Shown one piece after another: positions 35,594 to 50,455 of a DNA stretch of 64,000 nt. The stretch lies in the NCBI GenBank assembly GCA_030681595.1, contig JAUXSB010000003.1:31207-95206 (forward strand). The letters run 5' to 3'. Position 1 is the stretch's first letter; each line of letters begins with the position of its first letter. Below the pieces are notes generated by a model. It was not told the origin of the DNA. It was given only the letters and a program-made list of their open reading frames with translations, and made no database searches. This DNA is from Candidatus Omnitrophota bacterium (GTDB lineage Bacteria > Omnitrophota > Gorgyraeia > Ghiorseimicrobiales > Ghiorseimicrobiaceae). The position numbers were made by a program, and so were the translations under genes.

Positions 35594-35607
35594 AAATTAC
35601 CTTTGCA

Positions 35608-36032: not shown

Positions 36033-36956
36033 TCACAAAAACCAGGTTATAAGCGCTCCGGAAAACATCCAAAAGGCAAAGGGCGTAGTTTTCTGAATAG
36101 TTCTTTCGGAATAAAAATCAATTATTTTCTTAAGCATAGGGAACAGCAGCATAATCAATACGGTCGATATGAATGTATTTTTTATTTCAAAAATAAATCT
36201 TTTATCCGTATACACAAAGTATAGTATCAAAAAAACAAAAGTAATCATTATAAATTTGGTATTTTTTTTAAACATTTTGGAAAGCTTTTTAAAAAGCAAT
36301 AGGGCGATCAACATCAAAATATTCTGATCGGGTAAAATCCTACCGATTAAATTTTGTAATGCTTGTCGTAAAACCTTAAAAGCTAGAAAAAGAGTAAGAA
36401 AGCCAAAAAAGACTTTGCTTAATTCAATTTTATTAAATTTACTCTTCTCTTTAATTAATTCTGCGGTTTGCTTCTTTAATTTCCCAAAATTAAATTTTTT
36501 AATAAAGTAGGCGCATGACCGCAAAAAAAGATAAGCTGTCGCCGGTATAAAAATACTTAACAACAATGAAAAGGAAGCAAAGTAATAATTAAAATAAACC
36601 CGAGAATACTGCCCCATTGGAATAAGGGCAGAATAGCAGATAAAAAGCTTCGCATCCCCTGCTCCCCACATCTTAAAATACCATAGCGAATATGCCACAA
36701 TTATACTCGTTATTAAATTAACGCACCATTTGTCAAAATTATGGACTAAACCAGAAGATATTTCTGCTAAAACATTATTCGTAATTCCGCTTAAGGACAG
36801 ATAATAAATAATCCAGGAGGATAAATATAAAACACATGCGTAGATTAATCCTATTAAAATCCACTTATTTCTGATTTTAGAATACCTTAAGTCTTCGTAA
36901 GACGTAACAAGCCCGATAAAGAAAATTATCGGCAAAAAAATAATATTATTAATCAT
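36033..36956 (-). CDS. A24-family aspartic peptidase-like polytopic membrane protein (prepilin/preflagellin peptidase-like)
   Basis: 307 aa with SYEDLRYSKIRN (first catalytic Asp context) and WGAGDAKL (the GxGD-type second Asp motif of PilD/FlaK). Confidence 0.45.
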   Translation of the reverse strand: MINNIIFLPIIFFIGLVTSYEDLRYSKIRNKWILIGLIYACVLYLSSWIIYYLSLSGITNNVLAEISSGLVHNFDKWCVNLITSIIVAYSLWYFKMWGAGDAKLFICYSALIPMGQYSRVYFNYYFASFSLLLSIFIPATAYLFLRSCAYFIKKFNFGKLKKQTAELIKEKSKFNKIELSKVFFGFLTLFLAFKVLRQALQNLIGRILPDQNILMLIALLLFKKLSKMFKKNTKFIMITFVFLILYFVYTDKRFIFEIKNTFISTVLIMLLFPMLKKIIDFYSERTIQKTTPFAFWMFSGALITWFL

Positions 36957-37214
36957 ATAACTAATAAGCTTTGTTAAAATTTATTTTATTTATTCTTGTT
37001 TCTAAATTATTACTATTACAACACATTGGCAACAAACAAGTTATGTATTTTTTAAAGCATCGTTAATAAATAAGGTTATATCTTTGCAACGCATAACCAT
37101 AACGTAACGCATTGCATTACAATAAGTTGTGAAAGAAGATTTCGCAAGATGCCCCTATTTTTAATAAAGCCCTGTAATAAATATTCCTCACGTAATTTTT
37201 TCTGTATTAAAGAT

Positions 37215-37700
37215 TCAAATATTATTGGATAATATCTTTTCCGAAATTTCTAACACCAAGCTTTTCAACTTAGAAAAATTGTTAGCATTTAATTTTAGAT
37301 ATTTATAGTAATATATAACGTAATCATGGTTAAAAAGTATGCCGTTACTCAGTTTATATTCGCCAAGATGCCGTAAAGCGAAAGCTAAATCTATCCAGTT
37401 ATCAAGATTGTCGGGGTTACGAGAAATGGATTTTAAAAAATATTTCTTCGCCTGAGAAAAGTCTTCGGCGATATAATAAATATATCCTGCAAGCGAAAAG
37501 ATTGTTTCTATCTGTTCTTCTTTTAACCAATTTTTAATTTTCCCTTGCAACATTCTTAATTTCTCGGGAGAAGAAAAATAAAGAATGGATAACCGGTAGA
37601 AAAGCGAATCTATCCGTTCAATATAGCCAGAAATATAATTTGTCTGACGAGGCGAGAGATCAAAACCAGCAATATTTTTAAATTCGTTACATATATCCAT
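37215..37700 (-). CDS. TPR-repeat protein
   Basis: 161 aa with TPR-like helical repeats (AKKYFLKSISRNPDNLDNWIDLAFAL). Confidence 0.45.
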   Translation of the reverse strand: MDICNEFKNIAGFDLSPRQTNYISGYIERIDSLFYRLSILYFSSPEKLRMLQGKIKNWLKEEQIETIFSLAGYIYYIAEDFSQAKKYFLKSISRNPDNLDNWIDLAFALRHLGEYKLSNGILFNHDYVIYYYKYLKLNANNFSKLKSLVLEISEKILSNNI

Positions 37701-38770
37701 TAATTAAACTGAACAATAAAAGGTATCTCCGGGGCAAAATTTCTCCTCTGCCATCTGATCCTTCTTATCAACTTGCCATTATTCAAAATCACAACATCTC
37801 TATCCTCTAAAAATACACAGTTTCCTCTTTTTAAGTCACTTTCATAAAGGTTATTTTCAGACATTTGACCAATGAAGTAGACATCTTTATAATGTAACTT
37901 ACCATTTTTAATCTCGCCATCAAAGGCATAAAATTTTATTTCATAAAAGATTAATAGGGGTAGTTTTAAATGCCTATCAATCTTTTCTACAAATTCCGGC
38001 TCTTCCGCATAAATCGCTTTTTTTATTTTTCTGGCCAATTCTATCGTAGCCTTACAATTATAAGCACAAGGCATATGATAGATATAGGAATAGGTAATAT
38101 CCCTAGTACAAGGATTAGATAAATAATGGTATCTATTTTTCTTGGTATTCTTAAATGCTTCATAAAGATAACTATACTTATACCAGTTATTAAACTGTCG
38201 AAAAAAACCGACACAACATTTTGGATATCCAAGGTTATATCCAAATTTAAAAATATCTATACCAGGCCTATCAATTACTCTATGTTTGATTATTAAAGGA
38301 TACCATCCATCTCTAAAACAATTTTCTAAGTTACCTTTTGATTTAGCAATAAATACATGAACAAGGCCATCTTTGCTTGACCCATTAAACGGTAAGCCAA
38401 ATGCATAAGTCGTAGTTAGGCGTTTACCACCTATAACATTTTTTAAAATATTTTTCTTTTTTGACATCCTAAAAACAGTATCGGTCCTTACAATAAGACC
38501 ATAGCGTTTGCATATTCTACGGTATTCATCATATCTATCCACCCTTACCCAGTCGTCCATCGCTGGCTTTATCTCTTTCACTGTAGCCATTATATTCACT
38601 AACTGCCCACTGCCCTTAATCTGGACAAATTCTCTACAGAATTTTTTTGGATAATAGGATTCAAACATTATAGATATAATGAAACTCCATGGCTTTACAG
38701 ACGCAGCACCCAAGAACCGCCTGCGCTTCGTTTTAGCTATGCCTGAAAGCAGGCATAGCTGCGACATCAC
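37700..38770 (-). CDS. hypothetical protein (no rSAM motif), cluster member
   Basis: 356 aa, tightly coupled (start/stop overlaps) with neighbours; GYPKCCVGFF motif of unknown meaning. Confidence 0.3.
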   Translation of the reverse strand: MMSQLCLLSGIAKTKRRRFLGAASVKPWSFIISIMFESYYPKKFCREFVQIKGSGQLVNIMATVKEIKPAMDDWVRVDRYDEYRRICKRYGLIVRTDTVFRMSKKKNILKNVIGGKRLTTTYAFGLPFNGSSKDGLVHVFIAKSKGNLENCFRDGWYPLIIKHRVIDRPGIDIFKFGYNLGYPKCCVGFFRQFNNWYKYSYLYEAFKNTKKNRYHYLSNPCTRDITYSYIYHMPCAYNCKATIELARKIKKAIYAEEPEFVEKIDRHLKLPLLIFYEIKFYAFDGEIKNGKLHYKDVYFIGQMSENNLYESDLKRGNCVFLEDRDVVILNNGKLIRRIRWQRRNFAPEIPFIVQFN

Positions 38771-38794: not shown

Positions 38795-39766
38795 TTAAGC
38801 GCCTTTTATCGGCCTGAATTCTTCAGAGCCATATGCCTTTAAATAATGGACATATGGCCCAAGACAAAGGCTATTGAATACGCACCCACTACAAGAAACC
38901 ACCTTCCTTCTAGAGGTATATTTAAATGAATCATCTTTATTCTTTACACTCACCAAATAACCTCTGGAAATTTTTAATATTACGCATCTGAACATCTCCT
39001 TGTCAATCTTATTAATTATGCAAAATGGCATAGAGAGAAAATATCTTGCAAAATATATAAATAAATCAGAATGATAACGATATCTTTTTGTATACAACTC
39101 TACGGCTTTTTTAAAATACCTTATGACCTTTGTATATCTGGGCATTAGAAAATGGTAAAAAATAAGGGAAGCGGCATGCGGCCTATAATGATCTATCATA
39201 AAACGCATTCCAGGAAACTGTTCAATTTTAAGCCTTACCAAAGATGGAATATCCGCATAATTTTGCGTTAAAAAAATACCGTTTAATGTTACGGGTAAAT
39301 CAAACCGAGATAAATTGTTCAATGCCTCCATCAAATCAACAAATGAACCTGGAGAATTAGTTATCGCATCGTTTATCTTTGCAGTAGATCCGTAAATAGG
39401 AACATGAAATCCATTAGCTCCTGCCGTTACGACTTTCTTTAGAAAAACAAAATTCTTTAATTTTCTTCCCGTGGTTTGAACGGTGATATTTGTAAAAGAT
39501 AATTTACGCGCAAAAACTAATAAATCAATAATGGATGAACGGTTCAGTATTTCGTTACCCGTAAAGCATATCTTGCGAAAACCAAGCGACTTCGCAAGGC
39601 GTATCCTACATTTAATTGTATTTATATCATCCGGCTCATCATGGGTAAGTTGTTGCGTATTTTTTCCATGTACTAATCGGCTGTTCTGACAAAACACGCA
39701 AGAGTTATCGCATTGCGAATCTAATACTAAAATTATTTCATCGTTGTTTTGGAGAATAGGCATCAC
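38795..39766 (-). CDS. radical SAM protein, island paralog family (twitch-like C-terminal 4-Cys)
   Basis: 323 aa with CDNSCVFC and a C-terminal FCIIN...CSGCVFNSLCLG...YGSEEFRPIK. Confidence 0.7.
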   Translation of the reverse strand: MMPILQNNDEIILVLDSQCDNSCVFCQNSRLVHGKNTQQLTHDEPDDINTIKCRIRLAKSLGFRKICFTGNEILNRSSIIDLLVFARKLSFTNITVQTTGRKLKNFVFLKKVVTAGANGFHVPIYGSTAKINDAITNSPGSFVDLMEALNNLSRFDLPVTLNGIFLTQNYADIPSLVRLKIEQFPGMRFMIDHYRPHAASLIFYHFLMPRYTKVIRYFKKAVELYTKRYRYHSDLFIYFARYFLSMPFCIINKIDKEMFRCVILKISRGYLVSVKNKDDSFKYTSRRKVVSCSGCVFNSLCLGPYVHYLKAYGSEEFRPIKGA

Positions 39767-40650
39767 TTAACAGGTTTAAACTCTTGCCACCCAAAAAACT
39801 CAGGATATTCACGCCAGGGTCCCTCGCAAATTTTGAAATATTTGCATTCTTCACACTTCGGCCCTTTAAGTTTTCCATGTTCTCTGCGCCACTGGTTAAA
39901 ATTGGTTATCGGTTTAATATCAAATACCTTGGTTTCAGGAATAATCGCTTCACTAGCACAATTGGCATATTCGCTTAAAAAACAATACGGTATGGCTTCA
40001 GTTTTTGGCATTTTTTTCTTCCTAATGCCAATTTCCAGGCCGCGTTTTAAATAAAGAATAATATCTTTTTTCTGCGGTATTAGCCAACTATGATTCGCTA
40101 ATGCGTTTCCTAAAATATGAGGAAAGGAAAAACGATATTCAACCACCCCTAAGCCAACTAACATCAAAGCAATCTTAGGTAAAAAGCGGTAATTCAATGC
40201 AGTAATAACTGTATTAGTAAATACTACGCGACCAGAAGAAAGGAGATGCTTAATACCACAAATCGTCTGAGCGAAACTTCCCCTCGCTCCCGTATGGCTA
40301 TCATGCAACTCAGCATTATGTCCATGTACCGATATAGTAAAAAGACTTGCACCTGCCTCTATCATTTTTTTACAAAAATCTTTATACCTAAACATTCTTC
40401 CGTTGCTTTGAATATGAACAATATATCCTAACTTTTTAGAATATCTTACCAAGTCTATGATATCAAAACGTATTGTAGGTTCTCCACCTGTAAAAATTAC
40501 CTCTTTATAACTATCTTTCGAATCAGCTAAAATAGTTTCTATCTGTGAGCGCGCCATATCGTTGTAGATTTTGCGCTTGTTACCTTGGACACAAAAACTA
40601 CAGTGGTTATTACATCTAAAACTAATTTTTATATCCAGCCTCTTATGCAT
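39763..40650 (-). CDS. radical SAM protein, island paralog family
   Basis: 295 aa with CNNHCSFC, FTGGEPT, SVHGHNAELHDSHTG, and C-terminal IPYCF...CEECKYFKICEG...FGWQEFKPV. It is a close paralog of 55967-56872. Confidence 0.75.
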   Translation of the reverse strand: MHKRLDIKISFRCNNHCSFCVQGNKRKIYNDMARSQIETILADSKDSYKEVIFTGGEPTIRFDIIDLVRYSKKLGYIVHIQSNGRMFRYKDFCKKMIEAGASLFTISVHGHNAELHDSHTGARGSFAQTICGIKHLLSSGRVVFTNTVITALNYRFLPKIALMLVGLGVVEYRFSFPHILGNALANHSWLIPQKKDIILYLKRGLEIGIRKKKMPKTEAIPYCFLSEYANCASEAIIPETKVFDIKPITNFNQWRREHGKLKGPKCEECKYFKICEGPWREYPEFFGWQEFKPVK

Positions 40651-40681
40651 ACATCTATCCTAACCTTAATTATCCGTTGTC

Positions 40682-41614
40682 TTACGGCTCGCTTTTAACA
40701 TGTTTTATTGTCTCTTCTTTGGAAACAAAAACAGCGTATAGTTCTTGCGAAGAAAAATATTTATCCATCGCATAAAGGCCGGGACATATTTCATTCAAAA
40801 AACAAACACTACAACACTCAACCTTGCCATATGACCATCCTCTTTGGACTTTAAGGCCCTTTTCATCTAAGAAATAAATCGCGCGCTTCTCTCTCTTTAT
40901 TATTTTTCTGGCTTCCGTAGAACAATGTGCAAAATCAGCCATGTAACATAAGGGTACGCGTTCCGCCCTAAAAGTTCTCTTTTGCTCGGCTAAAAAATGC
41001 ATTGCCCTATTGAGCTCTAATTCAAAATCTATCAGTCGGGGAATCGTATCGGGATTTTCTGATGCGCGGTTCATCGAAGGGTCAATATTATTCCAGATAA
41101 AATGGCGAATAAACGGATATCTATTCACAAGCCACGCCGTAATTCTGCTTAAATGATCGGCATTATATTTATTAATCACGGTAATAACATCAACCTGCAA
41201 ATTTAACTTTTTGGCATTGTTAAGCGTTTTTTTAATGTTACATAAAGAATCCTTGTTCTCAGTAAGAAAACCCTGAATATCAGCACTATCAGAGTAGATG
41301 GATAAATTGATATGGTTTAATCCTGCCTCTGCCAATGAGTTAATATATTTAAAGTCGGCTGTTTTTTGGCCATTCGTTATTATTCTGACTGGAAAATTTT
41401 TGTTTGTTGCATACGCGATCAATTCAATGAGATCTGGATATAGGGTCGGCTCTCCTCCGCTTAAAATAACCCCATCGCAACCTATCTTGACATAATAATC
41501 AATTAACTCCTTAGCTTTCTTAAGAGATATGGTTTTATCAAACGACGGATTAGAACAAAATCTGCATTTTTGATTACAAATACGCGTAACCTGTATATAA
41601 GCTAATTCGGCCAT
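40682..41614 (-). CDS. radical SAM protein, island paralog family
   Basis: 310 aa with CNQKCRFC, LSGGEPT, and C-terminal VPLCY...CCSVCFLNEICPG. Confidence 0.7.
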   Translation of the reverse strand: MAELAYIQVTRICNQKCRFCSNPSFDKTISLKKAKELIDYYVKIGCDGVILSGGEPTLYPDLIELIAYATNKNFPVRIITNGQKTADFKYINSLAEAGLNHINLSIYSDSADIQGFLTENKDSLCNIKKTLNNAKKLNLQVDVITVINKYNADHLSRITAWLVNRYPFIRHFIWNNIDPSMNRASENPDTIPRLIDFELELNRAMHFLAEQKRTFRAERVPLCYMADFAHCSTEARKIIKREKRAIYFLDEKGLKVQRGWSYGKVECCSVCFLNEICPGLYAMDKYFSSQELYAVFVSKEETIKHVKSEP

Positions 41615-41618
41615 GTTT

Positions 41619-42644
41619 TCAGTAATTGCATTTATGTTTATGCTTGTTTTTTATTTCTGAATCAAATATGCTAATCCGCTCTAAAGTATGCAATATTTCT
41701 TTCGGATTTTTATCTGAAAGCGTTAGATTAAAATTAGGATAAACTTTTAGATAATCTCTTCTTACCCCCGGGCATATTTCACACAAAGAACAGCCTCTGC
41801 ATTCTCTGTATTTATAAAAATCTTCTTTGGCGATATCATTTTGAGTCCTGAGATTATTTATCCCGCGCGAATCAAGATATAAGTTATTATGATATAAATT
41901 TTCTTTTAATTCAACACTGGACCATTCATAAGAAGAGAGGATACATAACGGAAAACCGCAAGCAGAAATTTTATCCGTAGGGTTATCCCCTCCTAACGCC
42001 TTTAACGCTTTTAAAAGATAAGGCTGAATCTTATTTAGCGGAGGAAGTATCTTTTTGTAAAAAGTACTGTCATTGCCGCCTAAATCCATAAATTTAAATT
42101 TTACCCTGAATGGCGTATGCCTTAATATTTTTTTAAGATGAGTCGCCATGCCCTCTAATTCTTTATAATTCAAGCTATTAATTACCGTGTTGAAATTAAT
42201 CGCTAGCCTTTCTCTTATCTTTTTATTATCCTTATTAAATGATTCGATATTTAGTAAAGCCTTTTCCTGTAAAGAATGGCAAAACTTATTTCTTGATATG
42301 GCATTTGCAACCTTTGGGATATGCGAGTGAAAAGAAAAATTTATCTGCACGACTCCGCCTTTAATAACCTTAACTAAAAAATCATAGTAACTAAGCATTG
42401 AACCGTTAGTTGTAACCTTAAGTTTTAAATTACATTTTTTGGCTTCTTCCAATATTTTTAAAAAATCTGGCCTAATGAATGATTCCCCGGTCATTAACAT
42501 AACTGTATCTTCCTTGTAACTCTTAACTTTTTGAAACAATTGCCTAATTTCTCCAAAAGAAAGATCTTTTTTATGCTTATGCTGCCTATCCAGACAAAAT
42601 AAACAGTTGAAATTACATTTTTGGGTAATGCCTGTAATAATCAT
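41619..42644 (-). CDS. radical SAM protein, island paralog family (divergent)
   Basis: 341 aa with CNFNCLFC and C-terminal FPLCIL...CRGCSLCEICPG. Confidence 0.65.
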   Translation of the reverse strand: MIITGITQKCNFNCLFCLDRQHKHKKDLSFGEIRQLFQKVKSYKEDTVMLMTGESFIRPDFLKILEEAKKCNLKLKVTTNGSMLSYYDFLVKVIKGGVVQINFSFHSHIPKVANAISRNKFCHSLQEKALLNIESFNKDNKKIRERLAINFNTVINSLNYKELEGMATHLKKILRHTPFRVKFKFMDLGGNDSTFYKKILPPLNKIQPYLLKALKALGGDNPTDKISACGFPLCILSSYEWSSVELKENLYHNNLYLDSRGINNLRTQNDIAKEDFYKYRECRGCSLCEICPGVRRDYLKVYPNFNLTLSDKNPKEILHTLERISIFDSEIKNKHKHKCNY

Positions 42645-44734
42645 TAATTTTCTATCGGCTTTAAATCAGAAAACGAATAAATTAATGCGTATTCTCGCCA
42701 TACGCCATTACAAAAATTATATAAATTACATTTAACACAATTTGGCCCCTTAATTTTGCCTAAATTTAAATTATTTTCCCGCGAATTAAATCTTAAAGTA
42801 TTTTCGGTATATTCCACACATTGGCTAAGGTACTTATGCCATCCTCCTATACATAACGGGACACCGCAATATGGATTAAATATCATTAAATCACATTTTT
42901 TAGCCAGCTCGACTGCCTTTTTGATATAGGGAGAGATTATTCCATATGACGGTATAAGATACTTATTTATTAATGCCCGCTCCCGCGGCTGGATAACCGA
43001 AAGCGAGATATTTTTAATTTGGGGAAATTTATTATGAACAAATTTTATGTATTCGGGTAACTCTTTGTAATTTTGGGTAGTTATAACCGGATTTAAGGTA
43101 ACATCAATATTTAATTCTAATGAATTCCTAATCCCTGCGATAGCCATATCGAAGGCACCCTCCAACCCTACCAGCTTATCATGAATTCCAGGTACTGAAG
43201 AATGCAGGCTAATAAATAGCTTATTCAGCCCGGCATATTTCAATTTTTTTAAATAATCGTTATCGGATAGCCTTATCGCGTTAGTTTGAACCTGAACTAT
43301 TTTTACTCCTTTTCTATGGGCATATTTTATCAACTCCGAAAGGTCTTTTCTCAGGGTAGGCTCACCGCCGGTAATATCCAACTCCAACCTTAATTCCTTA
43401 TCAAGTGCGGTCAAGCGGCCTATTTCAAGTTTAGCCTGTTTAGTCGAAAGCTCTTTTAGAGCATACGATTCCGGAGGAACATTACAAAATAAACATCCGG
43501 CATTACACGCTGAGCCTAATCGTAAAAGCTTATATGGGGAGTTTTTCTTGACATCACCAATACTAATTTTCTTTAACCCGGCTTTAATCGGTGATAAAAC
43601 CTCAAATCCGTGCTTACGGATATAATTACACTGCATTCCAGCACAGCCTGCCATATGTTTGCACTCCTTGCATCTTTTACTTTTCAAAAAATATCTGTGT
43701 TGAATATAAAAATCAAGAAACTTTAAAATATCTTTATTTTTTTGGTCATTTTGCACATATACTGCCGGCCTGCCCGAATATCCCGGTTCATTTATTTCCC
43801 CTAAACAAAAAGGGGAGGCATGCGAAAGTATTTTATTTTTTTTCTTTAATTCTATTAAATCCTTACAAAAATTTTCTAAAAAACAAAACCGGCACCTCAA
43901 GCCTTTACAATCCATCACTTTGCCTTTAAAAAGAAAATTATTAAACATATCCTTGCGGCCGCCTACTTCATCGTATAATTTAGCCGGGTGCTGGATTAAA
44001 TATTCAAATCCTTCAAGATACTGCGGGGGGAAACGATTTGTCCATATATGTAGCCGCGGATCTTTGGATAGCATAAAAGCTTTGCGCAAAAATTTAATTG
44101 ATTTTTGAATATCATAAAAGAGAATATCCCTCTTAGCCCATGCTTGCCCAAATGGGATAACTTGCAAAAGATCAAACTCATATACGCCCAAATTAATAAA
44201 GAATTCTAAAATACTTGCTAAATACATTACATTAATTTTGTTTATCACAATATCAACACTAACAATCAAATCTTTTTCTTTTAAAGCATTAACTAAGGCT
44301 ACTAACGACTGCTGAAATGATCCCGGTACTTTAGTTTGTTGATCATGAAGCCTGCTATTATGCCCATGCAGCGAAAAGGTTATTTCTGATACACCGCTTT
44401 CTATTGCCTGCTTTAAGAAGCTCTGGTAGGCAAACATCCGGCCATTGGTAATAACTTGAATATGGCTGTATCCTAATGTCCTCGCCATATTAACAATATT
44501 AAAAAAATCCGGATGGATTGTTGGTTCTCCCCCGCTTAAAACAACTCGTCTTATCCCTAAACCTCTGCCTTTTTGTAAATCGGCTTTGATCTTCTCTAAA
44601 GGGATTACGCTCCCATCATGGGCTTCTTTATCTAAACAAAAGAGGCAGCGGTTATTACAACCCCGGGTTAGCCGTACCCAGTGTCTTTTTACCTGTGGTA
44701 TAATTTCTCGTTGCATAGAATAGCCTTTTATCAT
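42644..44734 (-). CDS. tandem-fused double radical SAM protein (two complete paralog-family modules)
   Basis: 696 aa. Module 1 has CNNRCLFC...SLHGHNSRLHDQQT...CKECKHMAGCAG. Module 2 has CNAGCLFC...SLHSSVPGIHDKL...VPLCIGG...CVKCNLYNFCNG. Confidence 0.75.
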   Translation of the reverse strand: MIKGYSMQREIIPQVKRHWVRLTRGCNNRCLFCLDKEAHDGSVIPLEKIKADLQKGRGLGIRRVVLSGGEPTIHPDFFNIVNMARTLGYSHIQVITNGRMFAYQSFLKQAIESGVSEITFSLHGHNSRLHDQQTKVPGSFQQSLVALVNALKEKDLIVSVDIVINKINVMYLASILEFFINLGVYEFDLLQVIPFGQAWAKRDILFYDIQKSIKFLRKAFMLSKDPRLHIWTNRFPPQYLEGFEYLIQHPAKLYDEVGGRKDMFNNFLFKGKVMDCKGLRCRFCFLENFCKDLIELKKKNKILSHASPFCLGEINEPGYSGRPAVYVQNDQKNKDILKFLDFYIQHRYFLKSKRCKECKHMAGCAGMQCNYIRKHGFEVLSPIKAGLKKISIGDVKKNSPYKLLRLGSACNAGCLFCNVPPESYALKELSTKQAKLEIGRLTALDKELRLELDITGGEPTLRKDLSELIKYAHRKGVKIVQVQTNAIRLSDNDYLKKLKYAGLNKLFISLHSSVPGIHDKLVGLEGAFDMAIAGIRNSLELNIDVTLNPVITTQNYKELPEYIKFVHNKFPQIKNISLSVIQPRERALINKYLIPSYGIISPYIKKAVELAKKCDLMIFNPYCGVPLCIGGWHKYLSQCVEYTENTLRFNSRENNLNLGKIKGPNCVKCNLYNFCNGVWREYALIYSFSDLKPIEN

Positions 44735-45693
44735 TTAATTGCCCTGAATTCGCCCCAGCCAACCTTTTCGGCATAAAGATTATCTATACCGCTGCATTTA
44801 TAATAATATTTGCATGGTTTACAGCTTTTATTTTTTATATTCCTTGATTCACGAGGTAATATTTCTACTCTTTTATTTTTAACCTGAAGTGGGATTTCGG
44901 ATTCCCCGACGTAATTTTCATAACCTACCATCAAACAAAGCGGCACAGGAGATATCTGTATAACGCCGGATAATCTAAACAGCTTATCTACTTTTAACCT
45001 ATCAATTACATTCCTAACTTCTTTAGCTACATCCAAATAAGTAACAAATAACTGACTGAAGAATCTTTCTGCGTTGCCGGAATACATTGGCATATTTAAC
45101 ACAATGCTATCTACTTTATTAAACGGTAAGATTTTTCTTAAGAAATTTTCAATATCTCTGTAGTTAATTTTTGTCATGGTAAAATTAACATTAAGCCGAA
45201 ATCTATATTTTTCCTTTAAAGAGACCATGTTGCATAACCCTTGCCATGTTTGTTCAAATGCACCGCTGCTACGAGTTAAGGCATCATGGATTTTTTTATT
45301 ACTCCCGTGAAGAGAAATATTAATCTCATTTAGCCCGCTATCTAATAATTCAATGCAAAAGTTTTTATATCTTAATAAACGCCCGTTTGTCTGTAGGCAA
45401 ATATCTTTATATCCCCACTTCTTAGATAATCTTATGAAATAAAGTAAGCCCTTATTCAGCGTTGACTCTCCCCCCGTAAATGATATGGAATCGACTTCTT
45501 TTGTTTTTCTTCCATCTCTTTTAAACATATCCAGATTTAAAAATGGTTCTCCGTTGACACTGCAATAATATTTTGACAACATATTCTGGCCATTAATACA
45601 ATCGCGATCACAGCAAAAAATACAATTATTGTTACAACACCCGCTGGTTTTAATATGAATTCTACTATCAGGGCTTATAATTACGTTATCCAT
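44731..45693 (-). CDS. radical SAM protein, island paralog family
   Basis: 320 aa with CNNNCIFC, FTGGEST, SLHGSNKKIHDALT, and C-terminal CKPCKYYYKCSG...VGWGEFRAIK. Confidence 0.7.
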   Translation of the reverse strand: MDNVIISPDSRIHIKTSGCCNNNCIFCCDRDCINGQNMLSKYYCSVNGEPFLNLDMFKRDGRKTKEVDSISFTGGESTLNKGLLYFIRLSKKWGYKDICLQTNGRLLRYKNFCIELLDSGLNEINISLHGSNKKIHDALTRSSGAFEQTWQGLCNMVSLKEKYRFRLNVNFTMTKINYRDIENFLRKILPFNKVDSIVLNMPMYSGNAERFFSQLFVTYLDVAKEVRNVIDRLKVDKLFRLSGVIQISPVPLCLMVGYENYVGESEIPLQVKNKRVEILPRESRNIKNKSCKPCKYYYKCSGIDNLYAEKVGWGEFRAIK

Positions 45694-45696
45694 TCT

Positions 45697-47055
45697 CTAA
45701 CGGTAAAAAAATAATGCGTAGATATATTTTTCTTCCGGCTTATCAAAATAAAAACAAATGTAATCATCAAAAATCTTTATTTTTCCAAGCCGCTTTAAAG
45801 CGTAAATAGCATAAGGAAAGGCAACAAAAATACTTGTACCAAACACAGCCTCAAATATTTTTTGAGGAACCTTGGATTCTAAGGCTAAATGATTTATTAT
45901 AAATTTTATCATCGCCTCTTTTTTCCTTAATATTCTACCCTCATATATTTTACTATCAAACTCAAAATGCCTCGGTTGCTTAACTTGACGATACTCCAGC
46001 ATACCATGTATATACGACCTGGAAAATGTTCCCAGGCCAAAGGTACACCCTGCGTATTCACCGGAATAATCTTGGGAAAAACTAGAGTCAAGATGTTCCT
46101 TATGGCGAAAGCCCCAATGGAACCTGGCAGGGTCAAAAGAGTCCGCTACATAGCCGAATTTCCGGCTTAATACACGCATAATTTTTAATGCCCGTGAAAT
46201 CATGGATGGATAATGCTTTTGAAAATAATCTGCGCGGCTCATCTTGAAATATTTACGCAGATATCCGTCATTAGGCGGCATTAAACCATAGACAACGATA
46301 TTATAAGGCCTTAATTTAGCAATTTCAGAAAAACTTTTTGTAAAGCCATTTGGGCTATCCCCTGCGAGACCGGCTATTAAATCGACACTAATATCCCTAA
46401 AACCATTTTCTTTTACCAGCCCAATTGCTTTTTTAATGCTCGCGTAATCCTGATAGTCCCTTTTATGAATTTTTAAAACCTTAGCATTTAAAGTTTGCAC
46501 GCCAAAACTAACTCTATTAAATCCAAAATGCTTAAGTAAGCTCAATCTTGAATTTCTTGTACTGCCTGGATTACATTCGGCTGTTTTTTGGCTATCGCCA
46601 CAAAATGAAAAATACCGGAAAAGATTTGTGAGAACCTTATCAAGTTGTTTGCTGTTTAAAATACTTGGTGTACCGCCTCCGACATAAAGATTACGGAATT
46701 TAATTTGGCTGAATGTATCGGAAAAAAAACACATATTCTCAATCAAATAATCCACATACCGGTCTATCTCTCTCCTGTCTCTTGCTGTCTGCGAAGGATA
46801 CGAACAATAAACACATTTTGACTGACAAAATGGGATATGGATGTAGAAATCGATATCGCACGGGTTGTTTTTATTTTTAGCATACTGGATAAATTTAGCC
46901 CAATAATCTTTAATTAGGCGGGGGCTAATCTGCCGGTTATAATCGGAATATGTATGCAGTTGATTAATATCATAAAAATAATCCCTCCGCCTAAGAATAT
47001 TTTCAAAATACGACACCTCATTCCTTAATATTTTTAAAATGTTGTTATCGCTCAT
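45697..47055 (-). CDS. HemN/HemW-like radical SAM protein (class-C-like)
   Basis: 452 aa with YIHIPFCQSKCVYCSYPS signature. Confidence 0.7.
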   Translation of the reverse strand: MSDNNILKILRNEVSYFENILRRRDYFYDINQLHTYSDYNRQISPRLIKDYWAKFIQYAKNKNNPCDIDFYIHIPFCQSKCVYCSYPSQTARDRREIDRYVDYLIENMCFFSDTFSQIKFRNLYVGGGTPSILNSKQLDKVLTNLFRYFSFCGDSQKTAECNPGSTRNSRLSLLKHFGFNRVSFGVQTLNAKVLKIHKRDYQDYASIKKAIGLVKENGFRDISVDLIAGLAGDSPNGFTKSFSEIAKLRPYNIVVYGLMPPNDGYLRKYFKMSRADYFQKHYPSMISRALKIMRVLSRKFGYVADSFDPARFHWGFRHKEHLDSSFSQDYSGEYAGCTFGLGTFSRSYIHGMLEYRQVKQPRHFEFDSKIYEGRILRKKEAMIKFIINHLALESKVPQKIFEAVFGTSIFVAFPYAIYALKRLGKIKIFDDYICFYFDKPEEKYIYALFFYR

Positions 47056-47063
47056 ATGAATAA

Positions 47064-47990
47064 CTAAATAGGGCTTAATTCTTTATCGCCAAATTCTTTA
47101 TAATAACGCTTAAATATTCCCCCGCAGATATTCTTCTTTGCGCAACGCTGGCATACAACTGTATAGATCCTCCCCCTAACCGGCCTGTACGAATGCGTAA
47201 CCTTAAGAAATCTTTGGCTACTTCTATGCATCTTTTCGATTGTCGTCCGGGGAGACCACCAAAGATCATTAGAACAGCCCTGATAATTATTCAATATACA
47301 AAGCGGTATCCCAAAAAATCTAACAACCAAAGAATTCCTATCGGCTTCGGATATAATTGTTCTAATGTTTTCTTTAATTAACTTAAGGGGCACGGATAGC
47401 TCGCAAAAATTATCCAAAGCATTGCCTTCAGGAGCAATATTAGAAATGAGTATCTGCTTTATTTTTTTGAAATTAGAGATAAATTTGATTATGCGATCTA
47501 GCGATCCAAAATTATACCGCGTCAATACGATATTAACAATGCCGAATATGTCTTTCGGATGCCTATCTATATTTTTTAACGCACGAAGCAAATTATCAAA
47601 ACTATGTTCGTTATTTGTATGAAAATTATGGAGTTTAGCGCTGTGGCCATGCAAAGAGAAGCAGAACTCATCAACATAATTTAAGGCCTCCCGAGTGAAA
47701 TCTTTTAAATAAAATAATCCTCCGTTACTCGTAGTATAAGTTTTATAGCCTTTAGTTTTTGCTAATTTAACTATTTCCACAAAATCGGGATGAAAAGTCG
47801 GTTCTCCTCCGGTAAAAGTAACATGATTAATTCTTCCCTTGTGATATTTTTCCAAAACGTTATTTACAACCGATTTCGGCAAAAAATACCCTTTAAACTT
47901 TATTAGCTGCTTATGCTCACTGCAAAAAATACAGTTATTTACGCAATCATAGGATATATGCAATTCTAATCGTTGTATATTATTTTCCAT
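47064..47990 (-). CDS. radical SAM protein, island paralog family
   Basis: 308 aa with CVNNCIFC, FTGGEPT, SLHGHSAKLHNFHT, and C-terminal IPLCIL...CQRCAKKNICGG...FGDKELSPI. Confidence 0.75.
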   Translation of the reverse strand: MENNIQRLELHISYDCVNNCIFCSEHKQLIKFKGYFLPKSVVNNVLEKYHKGRINHVTFTGGEPTFHPDFVEIVKLAKTKGYKTYTTSNGGLFYLKDFTREALNYVDEFCFSLHGHSAKLHNFHTNNEHSFDNLLRALKNIDRHPKDIFGIVNIVLTRYNFGSLDRIIKFISNFKKIKQILISNIAPEGNALDNFCELSVPLKLIKENIRTIISEADRNSLVVRFFGIPLCILNNYQGCSNDLWWSPRTTIEKMHRSSQRFLKVTHSYRPVRGRIYTVVCQRCAKKNICGGIFKRYYKEFGDKELSPI

Positions 47991-47994
47991 ATCA

Positions 47995-48912
47995 TTATTT
48001 AATCGGCTTTATTTCGCGATCACCATAATATTTTAGGTATATATCCCAAACACCTTTACACTTATCAGCAATCTTACAAAATAAACATTTTCTAATTTTT
48101 ATTCGATTAATTATTTTTTTTGACTCGATATTTTCGTACTGTTCAATTTTATTTTTAGATATCAACCGAGGCGTACTTTCAAACGAATATTCATTTTCCT
48201 CGATAGTACCGGATATCTGCTTAAGATAGTCCCCAAAATAGCATAAGCAGGGAACATTTAAAGCCGCATAGCTAACCTCATCATCTAACCGCCCAATATC
48301 TAAAAATTTGCGAATATAATACGCGGCTGTAGAAATACGCGGCGTATATTTATAAAAATCACGCGGGGAACTAACATAAATGAGGCATGCCGTTTTTATC
48401 CCAACACGATAGATTAACTTACCTATATCATATAAATATTTATAATTCTGCTTAACAATTACCGTGTTTGTACCTATATTATCAAACCCGAATTTCCTAA
48501 GGTTGGCAATCCCTTCCTTAAGATGTTTAAAGCTCCCCTCTACCTGCGATAGATAATCGTGTAATTTTGCATTATGCCCGTTGATCGTAAAGATTATACG
48601 AGAAATTCCTGCCTCAATAGCCCTACGAGTAAAATCTTCATAAGAGAAAAACCTGCCATTTGTAGTCAAAGTGATATTTTGAAAACCTATATTTTTGGCA
48701 AATTTTAGCAAATAAAAAAAGTCCGGCCTAATCGTAACCTCCCCCCCGGCAAAAAAAGCATCAACAGCCCCAGCTTTTTTCGCTTCTTTAATCTCCCGCA
48801 TTATTTCCTGTGTCGTTTTAACAGGAATACCCCTATATGCCCTATCGCCGCAAAAACGGCAATAATTATTACAGGAATAACCGGTAAGAAATTTTGCTGT
48901 TTTATCTTGCAT
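47995..48912 (-). CDS. radical SAM protein, island paralog family
   Basis: 305 aa with CNNYCRFC, FAGGEVT, TINGHNAKLHDYLS, and C-terminal CLFCKIADKCKG...YGDREIKPIK. Confidence 0.75.
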   Translation of the reverse strand: MQDKTAKFLTGYSCNNYCRFCGDRAYRGIPVKTTQEIMREIKEAKKAGAVDAFFAGGEVTIRPDFFYLLKFAKNIGFQNITLTTNGRFFSYEDFTRRAIEAGISRIIFTINGHNAKLHDYLSQVEGSFKHLKEGIANLRKFGFDNIGTNTVIVKQNYKYLYDIGKLIYRVGIKTACLIYVSSPRDFYKYTPRISTAAYYIRKFLDIGRLDDEVSYAALNVPCLCYFGDYLKQISGTIEENEYSFESTPRLISKNKIEQYENIESKKIINRIKIRKCLFCKIADKCKGVWDIYLKYYGDREIKPIK

Positions 48913-48922
48913 TGATAATAGT

Positions 48923-50455
48923 TTATTGCTTGGAGTTAGAGTTGAAGCACCGATTGTACTGCCCGCATTCTCGGCAAAATCCCCGCCATAAGTTTAAATT
49001 GAGATTATCCACCATAAGGCGACTTTGTGTTAACGCCGCAAGATATTTCGATTTCTTATAAATACAATAGATCTCGGAATGATACAACTTCAAAATTTCG
49101 CTGATATCGGCTTCGGAAAAAAATTCTGTGCAATATGGGATGACGGATAAATTAGATTTGGAGAAATTATAAAAATCCTTTAAGGAATTTACTTTACTTA
49201 ATACTCCGTATTTTTCTGGATAAAGGAATAGTGGAGAAGCAGGGTCAATCGCAGTTGAGTCCTGGCGTATTTCAACATTCGCTAATCTATTCCGTATGGA
49301 ATTAATGAATTTTAATGTTTCATATATATTTTTTTTTGTTTCAAAAGGCAAACCCGCGGAAAACGATAAGCATAATTTAAGATTTTTTTTATTGGCATAC
49401 AATAAAATCTCTAATATTTCATTATTTGAATAGCCCGCCTCTTTATTCATTTTCCTGATTTTTCGCGATCCGCTTTCTAAAAAAATTGAAATAATTGACC
49501 CCCTTTGAAATGTTTTCGCGAATTCGTCAATAAATACCTTTGTTGATAATCTGCAATCACCAAAATTTATAGTTAGGTCGATTTTATTTTTCCGTATTTC
49601 TTTAAACAAATCCATAAAATATGCATCATTCTGGCTCACCGCATACATATGCAGTTTATTGATATTATATTTTTTCAGTCTTTTTAAATCCTTAATCACA
49701 TATTTCACATCGGCAAAAACAATTTTACTTCTCTTGTTAATATTTTTTTGGGCCGAACACCCTCCCCCACAAAAAGAACAGCTCCTGACGCATCCCCGGC
49801 TAGCAGTATAATAAAATATTGGTTCGCTATCCTTATTGTTTAAATCCATAGAGAAGAATCTTATATATTTATCGTGGTTACGAATAAGTTTAAAGTTCGC
49901 ATATGATAATCTGTTAATTATGGCTTTGCCGGCAACATAAGTATGGGGGTTTTCAACTATGCCTTCACCGTCTCTCCATACCAAGTTCGGGATAAGGCGC
50001 AACCCCTCCGGAGATTTACTTCGGATACTATTTAAAAGCGCTAATAAAGGGATTTCCGCATCACCCTTGATGACAAAATCTATTTCTTTATATGTACGCA
50101 TAATTTCAGTGGCGAAAAGTGAAGCCGTCATCCCGCCTACTATCACCGTAATCTTTTTAATCCCGCGTTTTAAATATTTAATCGCCTCCAATACTTCGTA
50201 TGTATGCTGATACCAATGAAGATCAAATAATACTGCCCAATAACCTCTACTTATAACAAAATTTTTCAAGTCAAAACTGGGATTTAAGCTTTTTTCCAGG
50301 CCCAGATGAATAATAGACGGTTTAAAGCTATTTTTTGATAAATAGTCTGCGATGCCTATCATGCCGCGAGGCATCAATTTTATGCTAGGATTTTTCCCCT
50401 CTCTGGATACATGGACAAAACAAACTTTATTATTAAGCTTAAGGTTAGCAGCCAT
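48923..50455 (-). CDS. B12-binding-domain radical SAM protein (class-B-like)
   Basis: 510 aa with an N-terminal Rossmann-like cobalamin-binding region (IVGGMTASLFATE...FVIKGDAEIPL) and CVRSCSFC. Confidence 0.65.
   Translation of the reverse strand: MAANLKLNNKVCFVHVSREGKNPSIKLMPRGMIGIADYLSKNSFKPSIIHLGLEKSLNPSFDLKNFVISRGYWAVLFDLHWYQHTYEVLEAIKYLKRGIKKITVIVGGMTASLFATEIMRTYKEIDFVIKGDAEIPLLALLNSIRSKSPEGLRLIPNLVWRDGEGIVENPHTYVAGKAIINRLSYANFKLIRNHDKYIRFFSMDLNNKDSEPIFYYTASRGCVRSCSFCGGGCSAQKNINKRSKIVFADVKYVIKDLKRLKKYNINKLHMYAVSQNDAYFMDLFKEIRKNKIDLTINFGDCRLSTKVFIDEFAKTFQRGSIISIFLESGSRKIRKMNKEAGYSNNEILEILLYANKKNLKLCLSFSAGLPFETKKNIYETLKFINSIRNRLANVEIRQDSTAIDPASPLFLYPEKYGVLSKVNSLKDFYNFSKSNLSVIPYCTEFFSEADISEILKLYHSEIYCIYKKSKYLAALTQSRLMVDNLNLNLWRGFCRECGQYNRCFNSNSKQ

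Follow-up and report, generated by a model that had tools for sequence, protein, structure and literature searches.

The window, by which we mean the whole stretch of 64,000 nucleotides of Candidatus Omnitrophota DNA that was analysed, contains on its reverse strand a gene (36033..36956) for a putative A24-like (GxGD-type) polytopic membrane peptidase of 307 amino acids, called A24L below. The assignment is based on an open reading frame from ATG to stop, a match to Pfam family PF01478, and an AF2 model. An NCBI protein from a Candidatus Omnitrophota MAG that is 100% identical to A24L carries the name 'prepilin peptidase'. Other members of the family are labelled in their sources as 'prepilin peptidase', as 'CpaA' (some members in JGI) or as 'hypothetical', and the family has no NCBIfam model. 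The original prediction placed the gene at the end of an island of radical-SAM (rSAM) genes. This agrees with its low GC content (0.303, compared with 0.35 for the island and 0.41–0.42 for the flanks) and with the terminal position, which recurs in other genomes.

Both aspartate motifs that had been read from the sequence are present in the 307-aa reading frame. The first putative catalytic residue, Asp22 (codon 36891..36893, reverse strand), lies in the motif SYED22LRYSKIRN at the predicted cytoplasmic end of helix 1, parallels SVID94FRTQLLPDK of Escherichia coli GspO, and is followed by a basic loop (RYSKIRNK) that fits the positive-inside rule. The second, Asp101 (codon 36654–36656), belongs to a GAGD motif (36654..36665, reverse strand) in the context WGAGD101AKLF, which corresponds to the family consensus WxAGDAKLF and to GYGD158FKLL of GspO. 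D22 and D101 are invariant among 27 aligned relatives, as are N30, W92, K103, L104 and F105, and the pattern WxxGDxKLF was found in 111 of 117 homologues. According to hydropathy and the AF2 helices, loops rich in lysine and arginine alternate with hydrophobic helices, and this pattern would place both aspartates at the cytoplasmic side of the membrane.

The AF2 model is all-helical, with a pLDDT of 84.5. The protein ends in the conserved final helix of the A24 core, PFAFWMFSGALITWF (36039..36083, reverse strand; TPFAFWMFSG in residues 291–306), in which A294 is invariant and F293, F298 and G300 are kept in at least 90% of the sequences; the equivalent landmark in GspO is IAFGPWLALGS. Between the GxGD helix and this last helix lies a polytopic segment (approximately residues 148–291; 36084..36515, reverse strand) of four to five helices and a basic loop, recognized from the AF2 helices, hydropathy and K/R-rich loops, and poorly conserved in the alignment. 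An extra polytopic C-terminal half had been proposed. The additional helices indeed exist, but they are not simply appended: because the last helix is an A24 landmark, the extra ~145 residues appear to be an insertion in front of it. Distant relatives carry an additional soluble insert of the Arc_PepC type at the same site.

We compared A24L with known peptidase families. Residues 11–132 aligned with positions 3–93 of the 104 positions of the Peptidase_A24 profile (PF01478). The expected match to this family was significant by its E-value of 4.4e-5, but its score of 24.3 bits falls short of the gathering cutoff of 26.5 bits; GspO of E. coli, the positive control, scored 104.9 bits. Of the 27 aligned relatives, 22 reached E ≤ 0.01 against PF01478, with 1.2e-6 as the lowest value, and the C-terminal domain of archaeal A24 enzymes (PF06819 or PF06847) is found in distant relatives. 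A24L has its three landmark motifs in the same order as GspO. An NCBIfam scan of A24L yielded no family at E ≤ 0.1. The family alignment, used as a profile against all sequences of the PDB, produced no hits at E ≤ 10, a Foldseek comparison of the AF2 model with the PDB gave no FlaK-like match (best E = 0.63, TM < 0.2, mostly ABC transporters and GPCRs), and hhalign of the family against GspO returned a non-significant probability of 1% with only the last helix (tiaFGPWlalGs) aligned, all-helical membrane proteins being hard cases for these three methods. Hence, membership of the A24 family rests on the sub-threshold profile match together with the motifs. The protein has no N-terminal methyltransferase or Cys-rich domain, and its first aspartate already occurs at residue 22 in helix 1, so that A24L is not a PilD-type enzyme (A24A, the bifunctional PilD/GspO). 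In a search of 1.84 billion proteins, the family formed a discrete set of 1,714 cluster representatives, and its profile did not reach the ordinary A24 peptidases. From these sequence comparisons, A24L probably belongs to a branch of its own, discrete and divergent, within the A24 family of prepilin/preflagellin (GxGD aspartyl) peptidases.

The genes upstream of A24L, likewise on the reverse strand, constitute a much enlarged His-Xaa-Ser system of the HxsA4 type, with HxsD, HxsB, an HxsA4 precursor and 17 radical-SAM genes. Nearest to A24L is an AT-rich gap of 259 bp (36957..37214, GC 0.26) with a weak terminator-like hairpin at 37121–37103; in other genomes the corresponding gap is ~4 bp or an overlap. 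A promoter and terminator scan of the A24L flanks gave site counts not above shuffled expectation, and Rfam gave no match in 35300–37300. The gap is followed by a gene for a TPR protein of 161 aa (37215..37700; Pfam TPR matches) and one for a DUF483-like protein of 322 aa (37700..38668; PF04467 at E = 1.4e-4, sub-threshold; AF2 pLDDT 89.5) with invariant Cys, His and Asp residues, for which the PDB offered neither a sequence nor a fold match. The DUF483-like, TPR and A24L genes form a triad that recurs in seven other loci (L004, L006, L010, L014, L015, L017 and L038). The DUF483-like gene is present in only 17 of 80 loci and is therefore not a core partner; the idea that its product is the leader protease instead is neither backed nor dismissed by these data.

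Next to this triad lies an array (38795..56872) of 15 radical-SAM genes, recognized by Pfam Radical_SAM, and one gene of 335 aa without an assigned family (54970–55977). Every radical-SAM gene of the island encodes a CxxxCxxC motif. Most members of the array are HxsC/HxsC4-like paralogs of ~300 aa, accompanied by one double-domain protein of 696 aa, two HemN-like proteins and one with a B12-binding domain. Their best NCBIfam matches, NF038332 (HxsC4) and TIGR03977 (HxsC), all remained below cutoff, with the more than ten ~300-aa paralogs reaching, e.g., 166 bits where 500 are required or 104 bits where 268 are. Hence, the island lacks both a single HxsC equivalog and the four-gene architecture. 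A further radical-SAM gene (56859..57842; likely start at M40 of the listed reading frame) lies directly downstream of the HxsA4 precursor and resembles the SPASM-type peptide maturases of the PapB, CcpM and SCIFF types in NCBIfam, all below cutoff.

The upstream part of the island contains the Hxs core genes, again on the reverse strand. The HxsA4 precursor of 98 aa (57829..58125; NF038313, 60.7 bits, cutoff 55) has upstream of it, in order of increasing distance, a Cys-rich exported or lipoprotein-like protein of 254 aa (58155..58919), the HxsB radical-SAM/SPASM maturase (58892..60361; TIGR03978, 490.4 bits, cutoff 370) and HxsD (60542..60967; TIGR03976, 55.4 bits, cutoff 50). A second secreted Cys-rich protein of 196 aa with a signal-like N-terminus (61011..61601) delimits the low-GC island on its upstream side. 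The 254-aa protein matched no Pfam or NCBIfam family and travels with HxsA4: its homologues adjoin HxsA4 in L011, L014, L018, L020, L045, L055 and L095, and L093 has a similar Cys-rich protein beside HxsA4. The 196-aa protein gave no family hit and has homologues in L018 and L020. PADLOC and PHROGs returned nothing for A24L, HxsD, HxsA4, the DUF483-like protein or the Cys-rich protein, and only generic similarity of radical-SAM proteins to viperin. Judged by these profile scores, the island is a His-Xaa-Ser (Hxs) system, since HxsB, HxsD and the HxsA4 precursor all exceed their NCBIfam cutoffs.

The HxsA4 precursor, proposed here as the substrate of A24L, consists of a basic leader, a conserved FLLREEGKISKK, the residues K34-I-G36, the hydrophobic stretch ISLAVLSAMF, an AQA motif, a His-Xaa-Ser repeat core and a C-terminal tryptophan. 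Its leader follows the conserved pattern P-x-I-K-K-x-I-x-x-F-L-x-S-E-E-G-K-I-S-K-K; in an alignment of 143 HxsA4 sequences the leaders have a median length of 34 aa and a median net charge of +6. Position 36 (codon 58018..58020, reverse strand), the candidate −1 residue of a cleavage site, was occupied by Gly in 127 sequences, Ala in 14, Ser in two, and by nothing else. Position −3 was Lys or Arg in 112 of the 143 sequences (78%), positions +1 to +10 were hydrophobic, and +5 was Val, Ala or Ile. The uncharged run after Gly36 had a median length of 13 residues (IQR 11–15.5), and an A-x-A motif occurred just downstream of the hydrophobic stretch in 95 sequences (66%), so that signal peptidase I might suffice for release of the peptide. 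Furthermore, Gly25 of the EEGK motif is equally limited to Gly or Ala, and conservation of a small residue is therefore not unique to the Gly36 site.

True class III substrates have ~20 hydrophobic residues after the site and, in bacterial pilins, Glu at +5. A search for a class III signal in the precursor and in the two secreted Cys-rich proteins had been proposed. In HxsA4 the basic N-region does end in a near-invariant Gly, Ala or Ser at −1, at the junction with the hydrophobic stretch and so at the place where a cut by a prepilin-type peptidase would be expected, but the run of ~20 hydrophobic residues and the glutamate at +5 are absent. In terms of sequence, the run of ~13 residues falls short of that in true class III signals and is typical of the h-region of a Sec signal. 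The Gly36 junction thus resembles a class III signal, with a stretch that is too short and that is usually followed by an AxA site. The Cys-rich secreted proteins were rejected as class III substrates, since their N-termini share neither a conserved small residue nor a junction motif.

We surveyed the neighbours within 10 kb of A24L in 80 species-representative loci from Omnitrophota, Patescibacteria and DPANN archaea. Hxs or HxsC-like rSAM island genes were found in 78 of the 80 loci, and rSAM genes in 76. The median gap between A24L and the nearest island gene was 4.5 bp, and 406 of the 425 island genes were co-directional with A24L. Seven homologues with 30–62% identity were individually examined: all seven lie in rSAM arrays, and their outer flanking genes differ. 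Some loci are compact and consist of A24L, HxsD, HxsB and HxsA4 (e.g. L049, L064, L075, L081 and L086), whereas the order is HxsD-HxsB-HxsA4-HxsA4-A24L in L023 and HxsB-HxsA4-A24L in L062. Hxs core genes were present in 17 of the 20 archaeal loci. In the converse direction, the unannotated gene of 350 aa adjoining a divergent archaeal HxsA4 (P0185) turned out to be an A24L (E = 1.4e-52), while L093 is an HxsA4 locus that has no A24L within 10 kb. The functional tie between the membrane protease and the rSAM-modified precursor, as originally suggested, is strongly supported by this genomic evidence: the neighbourhood of A24L and Hxs peptide systems has been kept across three very distant lineages. 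Across ~80 species, all bacteria or archaea of ultra-small size, A24L is nearly always found within clusters for rSAM-modified, His-rich peptides, and it therefore probably clips the leader of these peptides at the membrane.

Pilin genes presented a more varied picture. Gene searches found no pilus, Tad or archaellum genes in the window, and a regex scan for class III signals over its 1,147 combinations of reading frames and starts gave one false hit only, inside an rSAM gene. The observation that no pilin-like gene is nearby hence holds for the entire 64 kb. A pilin-like reading frame was also absent from 17 of the 18 Omnitrophota-type loci. In at least 10 of the 32 Patescibacteria loci, however, three to five classical pilin-like genes (GFTLIELL) come after A24L on the same strand. 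They follow immediately in L024 and L057; L026 and L032 combine an rSAM array, A24L and pilin genes with no HxsA4, HxsB or HxsD within reach, and in L023 a pilin lies ~3.4 kb downstream. In this clade of Patescibacteria the A24L gene stands between the rSAM array and a set of minor pilins. The lack of pilins is therefore true of the window but not of the whole family, and the position of A24L beside pilins with Gly-Phe-Thr-Leu-Ile-Glu suggests that a prepilin-type specificity has been kept. Pilin genes are numerous in Patescibacteria. Moreover, the conserved gene order extends beyond these pilins into housekeeping genes further downstream (LigA, GatC and RmlB-like), so that part of the adjacency between A24L and pilins may be clade-specific synteny.

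Among known peptidases, A24L resembles the archaeal type (FlaK, PibD and EppA; PF01478 plus Arc_PepC, PF06819/PF06847), with which it shares both Asp motifs including GxGD, the lack of an N-terminal methyltransferase and the conserved last helix. The distant members of its family from DPANN and Patescibacteria (~350–410 aa) also have a soluble insert of the Arc_PepC type ahead of their last helix. Archaeal-type A24 enzymes accept Gly, Ala or Ser at −1, which matches the residues at position 36 of HxsA4. In contrast to these enzymes, A24L of the window has no soluble domain and ~145 extra residues in the membrane. Solved structures gave no match to it in sequence or fold, and its genomic tie is to Hxs/rSAM genes instead of those for an archaellum or pilus. 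HxsA4 likewise differs from archaeal A24 substrates in having Lys at −3 instead of −2 and only ~13 hydrophobic residues after the site. With GspO of E. coli, A24L shares the motif order D-x-R-x-x-x-(L/I), G-x-G-D-x-K-L and F-(G/A)-x-W, but the spacing between the two aspartates is 79 residues in A24L and 64 in GspO, and the distance from the second aspartate to the last helix is ~190 and ~47 residues, respectively. Like TadV/CpaA it has no methyltransferase domain, and unlike both PilD/GspO and TadV/CpaA it is encoded in a window that contains no pilus assembly genes.

The island shares HxsB, HxsD and a His-Xaa-Ser precursor with an export-like N-terminus with the canonical HXS system of Proteobacteria (HxsA-HxsB-HxsC-HxsD). 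This system comprises four genes in over 99.8% of cases and no peptidase, and the function of its HxsA in antiphage defence needs a non-canonical N-terminal cleavage (PMC13128918). The canonical HxsA is a protein of ~214 aa with a peptidoglycan-binding domain, whereas the precursor here is of the 98-aa HxsA4 type. The present system differs furthermore in its more than ten HxsC-like paralogs and its additional A24-like peptidase, Cys-rich exported, DUF483-like and TPR proteins. Dedicated RiPP leader peptidases, such as the C39 domains of PCAT transporters and LanP-type subtilisins, are encoded in their clusters and cut after a small-residue motif once the peptide is modified. By analogy, A24L would be a cluster-encoded protease that removes a conserved N-terminal leader. 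In contrast to C39 and LanP, it would belong to the intramembrane aspartyl GxGD class and is predicted to act at the cytoplasmic membrane face, at the junction of the n- and h-regions of the signal. We know of no RiPP class with a leader peptidase of the A24 family. The pairing had been called unusual for rSAM products, and in NCBIfam, PADLOC and the literature searched we found no earlier description of A24L with Hxs or of an A24 peptidase for RiPP leaders.

We consider it somewhat better than an even chance that A24L is the dedicated intramembrane leader peptidase of HxsA4-type His-Xaa-Ser systems, a model based on the motifs, the gene linkage and the Gly/Ala/Ser position, from which we infer catalysis, substrate, site and order of events. 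HxsA4 would be made with a basic conserved leader of ~34 residues, the probable dock for HxsB, HxsD and the HxsC-like radical-SAM enzymes, and while still cytoplasmic it would be modified by these enzymes in its C-terminal His-Xaa-Ser core. Next, the short hydrophobic stretch behind the leader would insert into the membrane, where A24L, with D22 and D101 at the cytoplasmic face, may cut after the small residue (K-hydrophobic-Gly36/Ile), as a prepilin peptidase does. The mature His-rich peptide would then end up beyond the cytoplasmic membrane, either exposed there or released, and signal peptidase I may make a further cut at AQA beforehand. In the genome studied here, the 259-bp gap with its weak hairpin between A24L and the operon counts against the model.

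Several other explanations have to be weighed against the leader peptidase. A24L could be a true prepilin peptidase with class III pilin-like proteins as its substrates, in which case the HxsC-like arrays would be tied to a type IV filament, for instance by modifying pilins or filament-associated peptides, and HxsA4 would be handled by Sec and signal peptidase I. The pilin genes after A24L in Patescibacteria and in L023, the two arrays without preceding Hxs core (L026 and L032), and the AxA motif and Sec-like short h-region of HxsA4 all agree with this possibility. It does not account for the window and the 17 Omnitrophota-type loci free of pilin-like reading frames, nor for compact archaeal loci that contain only A24L and Hxs core genes, and part of the pilin adjacency may reflect the synteny and the abundance of pilin genes noted above; we regard it as unlikely, though worth keeping in view. 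Far less probable is an ordinary Tad or type IV prepilin peptidase that happens to border an acquired rSAM island. The annotations as 'prepilin peptidase' or 'CpaA', the 259-bp gap to the upstream gene, and the Tad and type IV pilus systems encoded in Omnitrophota genomes (bioRxiv 10.64898/2026.06.07.730766) would fit such a chance position. This is largely refuted by the synteny survey, with linkage in 78 of 80 species representatives from three lineages at a median gap of 4.5 bp and with differing outer flanks; the low GC content that A24L shares with the island and the discreteness of its family, whose profile stops short of ordinary A24 peptidases, also argue against it.

Two further alternatives assign A24L to the Hxs system in another role. 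Signal peptide peptidases belong among the GxGD proteases, and signal peptidase I might first cut HxsA4 at AxA, a motif found in 95 of the 143 precursors, after which A24L would, by signal-peptide-peptidase-like or regulatory intramembrane proteolysis, degrade the remnant of leader or signal retained in the membrane, or process the N-terminally anchored Cys-rich protein that travels with HxsA4. The Cys-rich N-termini lack a shared small residue or junction motif, however, a site of primary cleavage is the better explanation for the near-invariant Gly, Ala or Ser where the n- and h-regions of HxsA4 meet, and to our knowledge no member of the A24 family acts as a signal peptide peptidase, so that we give this role a low probability. 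Finally, the ten-helix A24L might not be proteolytic at all, but serve as an export conduit, a membrane scaffold or a docking site for the rSAM enzymes, with A24-like motifs kept for binding. Its four to five extra helices and large basic cytoplasmic loop (residues 146–176, ten K/R) are absent from minimal A24 enzymes, and the protein shows no structural match to known A24 peptidases. Nevertheless, both aspartates and the GD-x-K-L-F motif are invariant down to 28% identity, as selection for catalysis would give, which makes a non-proteolytic role quite improbable.

A more speculative possibility, to which we assign only a small chance, combines the leader peptidase with the pilin connection. 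The HxsA4 peptides could be miniature pilin-like, rSAM-modified His-rich peptides with a shortened class III signal and their own archaeal-type prepilin peptidase, shown on or fed into a type IV-filament-like structure. They would then represent a shared surface, host-interaction or anti-phage device of the ultra-small, largely episymbiotic or predatory lineages of Omnitrophota, Patescibacteria and DPANN archaea. If this were true, A24L would represent the first case of an intramembrane aspartyl protease that removes leaders in a RiPP-like pathway.

The only substrates of A24 peptidases known to us are pilins, pseudopilins, archaellins and a small number of surface proteins of archaea. A discrete branch of the family in rSAM peptide-maturation clusters would therefore add a protease class to RiPP-like leader removal, and this role of A24L would extend the range of substrates known for GxGD proteases. 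A24L is also a concrete candidate for the non-canonical N-terminal cleavage of HxsA, which is unexplained even in the HXS defence system that has been studied. The present labels of its members ('prepilin peptidase', 'CpaA' and 'hypothetical') invite wrong inferences on piliation in these genomes. Despite their tiny genomes, Omnitrophota, Patescibacteria and DPANN archaea have kept a conserved set of A24L, HxsD, HxsB, HxsA4 and a Cys-rich exported protein, together with a variable HxsC-like array.

The A24-like peptidase gene (A24L), an ORF of 307 aa from ATG to stop (36033-36956, minus strand), lies at the end of a low-GC island (approximately 36,000 to 61,600) with a GC content of 0.35, against 0.41-0.42 in the flanks and 0.303 in A24L itself. 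Profile matches identify the island as a His-Xaa-Ser (Hxs) system, with HxsD (60542-60967; TIGR03976, 55.4 bits, cutoff 50), HxsB (58892-60361; TIGR03978, 490 bits, cutoff 370) and the 98-aa His-Xaa-Ser repeat precursor HxsA4 (57829-58125; NF038313, 60.7 bits, cutoff 55). In total, 17 co-directional radical-SAM (rSAM) genes at 38795-60361, i.e. HxsB and 16 others, encode 18 CxxxCxxC domains, whereas canonical HXS systems have only two rSAM enzymes. More than 10 of these genes encode HxsC/HxsC4-like paralogs of ~300 aa, with best NCBIfam matches to HxsC4 or HxsC under the cutoff and a shared C-terminal tail (CxxCxxxxxCxG...EFxPIK). The others include a double-domain 696-aa protein, two HemN-like proteins and one B12-binding protein. 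At the end of the array come a DUF483-like protein, a TPR protein and, across a gap of 259 bp, A24L. Elsewhere, the window encodes a hydrogenase, an H+-PPase, CTP synthase, a chemotaxis cluster and similar functions. As originally predicted, no pilin-like gene is nearby: the 64-kb window contained no pilin-like ORF and no pilus, Tad or archaellum genes.

Several other features of the island were observed. The 366-aa rSAM ORF as listed (56859-57959) overlaps the HxsA4 gene by 131 nt, and its first 39 residues (…MAPMAPMAP…) fall in a different frame across the His-Gly-Ser repeat region of HxsA4; these residues are probably untranslated, with the real start at M40 (57842). Within the rSAM array, a 335-aa protein (54970-55977) had no Pfam or NCBIfam match, and L045 was the only other locus where a homologue was detected. 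Just past A24L, at the island boundary, a 44-bp tandem repeat (35608-35794; 4.2 copies, 96% identity) contains an internal inverted repeat in each unit (TTTGGCTATATTGAAAGCCAAA) and had no Rfam match.

A24L is 100% identical to a 'prepilin peptidase' of a Candidatus Omnitrophota MAG at NCBI. Its residues 11-132 matched positions 3-93 of the 104 in the Pfam Peptidase_A24 profile (PF01478) with E=4.4e-5, but the score of 24.3 bits was slightly below the gathering score of 26.5; E. coli GspO, the positive control, scored 104.9 bits. A24L matched no NCBIfam model. Both aspartate motifs named in the original prediction were found (SYED22LRYSKIRN and WGAGD101AKLF), and D22 and D101 were invariant in an alignment of 27 family members down to 28% identity, as were N30, W92, K103-L104-F105 and A294. 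PF01478 was matched at E<=0.01 by 22 of these 27 sequences, and a few distant relatives among them matched the archaeal A24 C-terminal domains PF06819 or PF06847. In a comparison by eye, A24L and GspO shared the order of three landmarks: the first aspartate (SYED22LRYSKIRNK versus SVID94FRTQLLPDK), the second (GAGD101AKLF versus GYGD158FKLL) and the last helix (PFAFWMFSG versus AFGPWLALG). The extra helices proposed for the C-terminal half are present, but they form an insertion rather than an appended domain, since the last A24 helix follows these ~145 residues (4-5 helices and a K/R-rich loop) that separate it from the catalytic core.

A profile search of all PDB sequences found nothing, Foldseek with a confident AF2 model of A24L (pLDDT 84.5, pTM 0.69) returned noise only, and hhalign against GspO was not significant, aligning the last helix alone. 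Because support comes from a sub-threshold HMM match and invariant motifs, we describe A24L as a putative divergent A24-like GxGD peptidase, short of a demonstrated A24 member. A PilD-type identity is certainly ruled out, because the N-terminal methyltransferase domain is absent. When 1.84 billion cluster representatives were searched exhaustively with the profile, only 1,714 relatives emerged at E<=0.001, 565 of them at E<=1e-30. The family thus forms a discrete clade, with no gradual transition to ordinary prepilin peptidases.

The decisive evidence on A24L is comparative. Seven homologues looked up singly (30-62% identity) were all inside or at the end of rSAM arrays, usually 4-12 bp from the adjoining gene or overlapping it, with variable outer flanks (RecA, SMC, tRNA synthetase, PGK and others). 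Scanning a single genome for each species gave 300 relatives, and HMMs built on proteins of the window were used to annotate the best 80 loci. Among these best 80 of 300, island genes occurred within 10 kb of A24L in 78 loci and rSAM genes in 76, the nearest island gene was a median of 4.5 bp away, and 406 of 425 island genes were co-directional with A24L. The predicted place at the end of the rSAM island applied to the window, where A24L closes the array, and to 45 of the 80 loci, in which it was the last island gene (first in 17, internal in 16). By lineage within this sample, as assigned from record titles, rSAM genes were present in 17 of 18 Omnitrophota-type and 30 of 32 Patescibacteria loci; Hxs core genes, counted as lower bounds at a 10-kb reach, were present in at least 10 Omnitrophota-type and at least 17 of 20 archaeal loci (mostly Woesearchaeota and other DPANN). 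Several archaea have a compact A24L-HxsD-HxsB-HxsA4 locus, and L023 (HxsD-HxsB-HxsA4-HxsA4-A24L) and L062 (HxsB-HxsA4-A24L) are similarly compact. These loci suggest that the HxsA4/HxsB/HxsD module is the core partner of A24L, and the long HxsC-like array a variable add-on. Conversely, a search from a divergent archaeal HxsA4 (P0185) led to an unannotated 350-aa neighbour that proved to be A24L (E=1.4e-52). The linkage is strong yet not absolute, because the lone precursor P0190 (locus L093) lacks A24L and has a Cys-rich protein as its only companion. We regard the conserved linkage of A24L to Hxs/rSAM genes as almost certainly real.

The N-terminus of HxsA4 was conserved more than its core in 143 non-identical sequences, with the pattern P10-x-I-K-K-x-I-x-x-F19-L-x-S-E-E-G25-K-I-S-K-K-x-I-x-K34-x-G36 followed by a hydrophobic run. 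Position 36 was Gly in 127 sequences, Ala in 14 and Ser in two, with no other residue; prepilin and preflagellin peptidases accept these three at -1. Position -3 was K or R in 78%, and the leader had a median length of 34 residues and a net charge of +6. The search for a class III motif recovered the Gly/Ala/Ser position and basic leader, but not a long hydrophobic run or Glu at +5. We call the predicted signal only class III-like, because the uncharged run after Gly36 has a median of just 13 residues, Glu is absent from +5, an A-x-A motif that would suit signal peptidase I follows shortly downstream in 95 of the 143 sequences, and Gly25 is restricted to Gly/Ala as strictly as Gly36. Past the leader, archaeal HxsA4-type precursors diverge widely (L075 3528-4232; L068 14716-15315; L081 6850-7422; L064 5482-5709): one has >30 consecutive H-x-S repeats, two a C-terminal extension of ~100 aa past the repeats, and one a Cys-Gly-rich tail (CGCGCGCGCGCH) instead of repeats. 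Bacterial precursors typically end in W or WC.

We infer catalysis by A24L, the identity of its substrate and the cleavage site. In the proposed mechanism, rSAM enzymes would first modify the His-Xaa-Ser core, after which A24L, as a dedicated intramembrane aspartyl leader peptidase, would cut the conserved ~35-residue HxsA4 leader after K-x-Gly36 at the cytoplasmic membrane face, so that the mature peptide would be exposed or released outside the membrane. We lean towards this dedicated, post-modification role. The results support the original proposal of a leader- or signal-processing protease as a candidate role, for which the genomic comparisons make the case considerably stronger.

The main rival, a pilin-linked function, appears unlikely. 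It draws on a Patescibacteria clade in which the rSAM array is followed by A24L (~400 aa), in some loci a ~370-aa secreted protein, and then 3-5 (pseudo)pilin genes, classical type IV with G-F-T-L-I-E-L-L N-termini and on the same strand as A24L. Pilin genes directly adjoin A24L in L024 (10437-12110) and L057 (6341-7991) and lie downstream in L025, L026, L031, L032, L033, L035 and L043; in L026 and L032, HxsA4, HxsB and HxsD are absent before the array. This arrangement has two possible readings. Either the family has retained the specificity of prepilin peptidases, in support of a cut after Gly36 as proposed, or A24L serves pilins in these lineages, possibly in addition to HxsA4. Conservation also extends to housekeeping genes beyond the pilins, so some of the adjacency may reflect synteny specific to the clade. 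A link between HxsC-like rSAM arrays and type IV filament proteins is a further possibility in this clade. Signal-peptide-peptidase-like or other intramembrane processing seems slightly less probable than a pilin-linked role, a non-proteolytic scaffold or exporter is improbable, and a housekeeping peptidase adjacent by chance is very improbable.

Other neighbours also recur. The DUF483-like protein (37700-38668, 322 aa), present in 17 of the best 80 of 300 loci and part of a DUF483L-TPR-A24L triad in Omnitrophota loci, has invariant C151, C152, C201, C205, H104 and D138. Despite a confident AF2 model (pLDDT 89.5, pTM 0.88), comparison with the PDB by sequence and by fold gave no match (best Foldseek E=0.11), so its fold may be undescribed. 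A second protein, Cys-rich, ~250 aa long and either exported or anchored (58155-58919 in the window, where it matched no Pfam or NCBIfam family; L011 2267-3091; L095 10291-11037; L093 9208-10026) recurs next to HxsA4 in bacteria and archaea, including L093, which lacks A24L and HxsB/HxsD, and may be a second conserved HxsA4 partner. In L011, a Peptidase_M50 gene (site-2 protease family; 13483-14172) lies ~2.5 kb downstream of an A24L homologue with 31% identity, with an rSAM and a DUF483 gene in between; it represents a further intramembrane protease in the vicinity of an Hxs island.

Recent work showed that proteobacterial HXS is an antiphage system, in which the effector HxsA requires modification by HxsB and HxsC, N-terminal cleavage and periplasmic export, and which has only four genes in >99.8% of cases (PMC13128918). 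In contrast, the precursor is much shorter in the HxsA4-type systems of this analysis, the HxsC-like enzymes are expanded, and a Cys-rich exported partner and an A24-like peptidase are present. Full-text literature searches found no description of the A24L-Hxs pairing, in line with the original view that such a pairing with rSAM-modified products is unusual. Here, a radical-SAM peptide system has recruited an A24-type peptidase as one of its standing components. This peptidase is widespread among Omnitrophota, Patescibacteria and DPANN archaea, where its present annotation is either wrong or missing.
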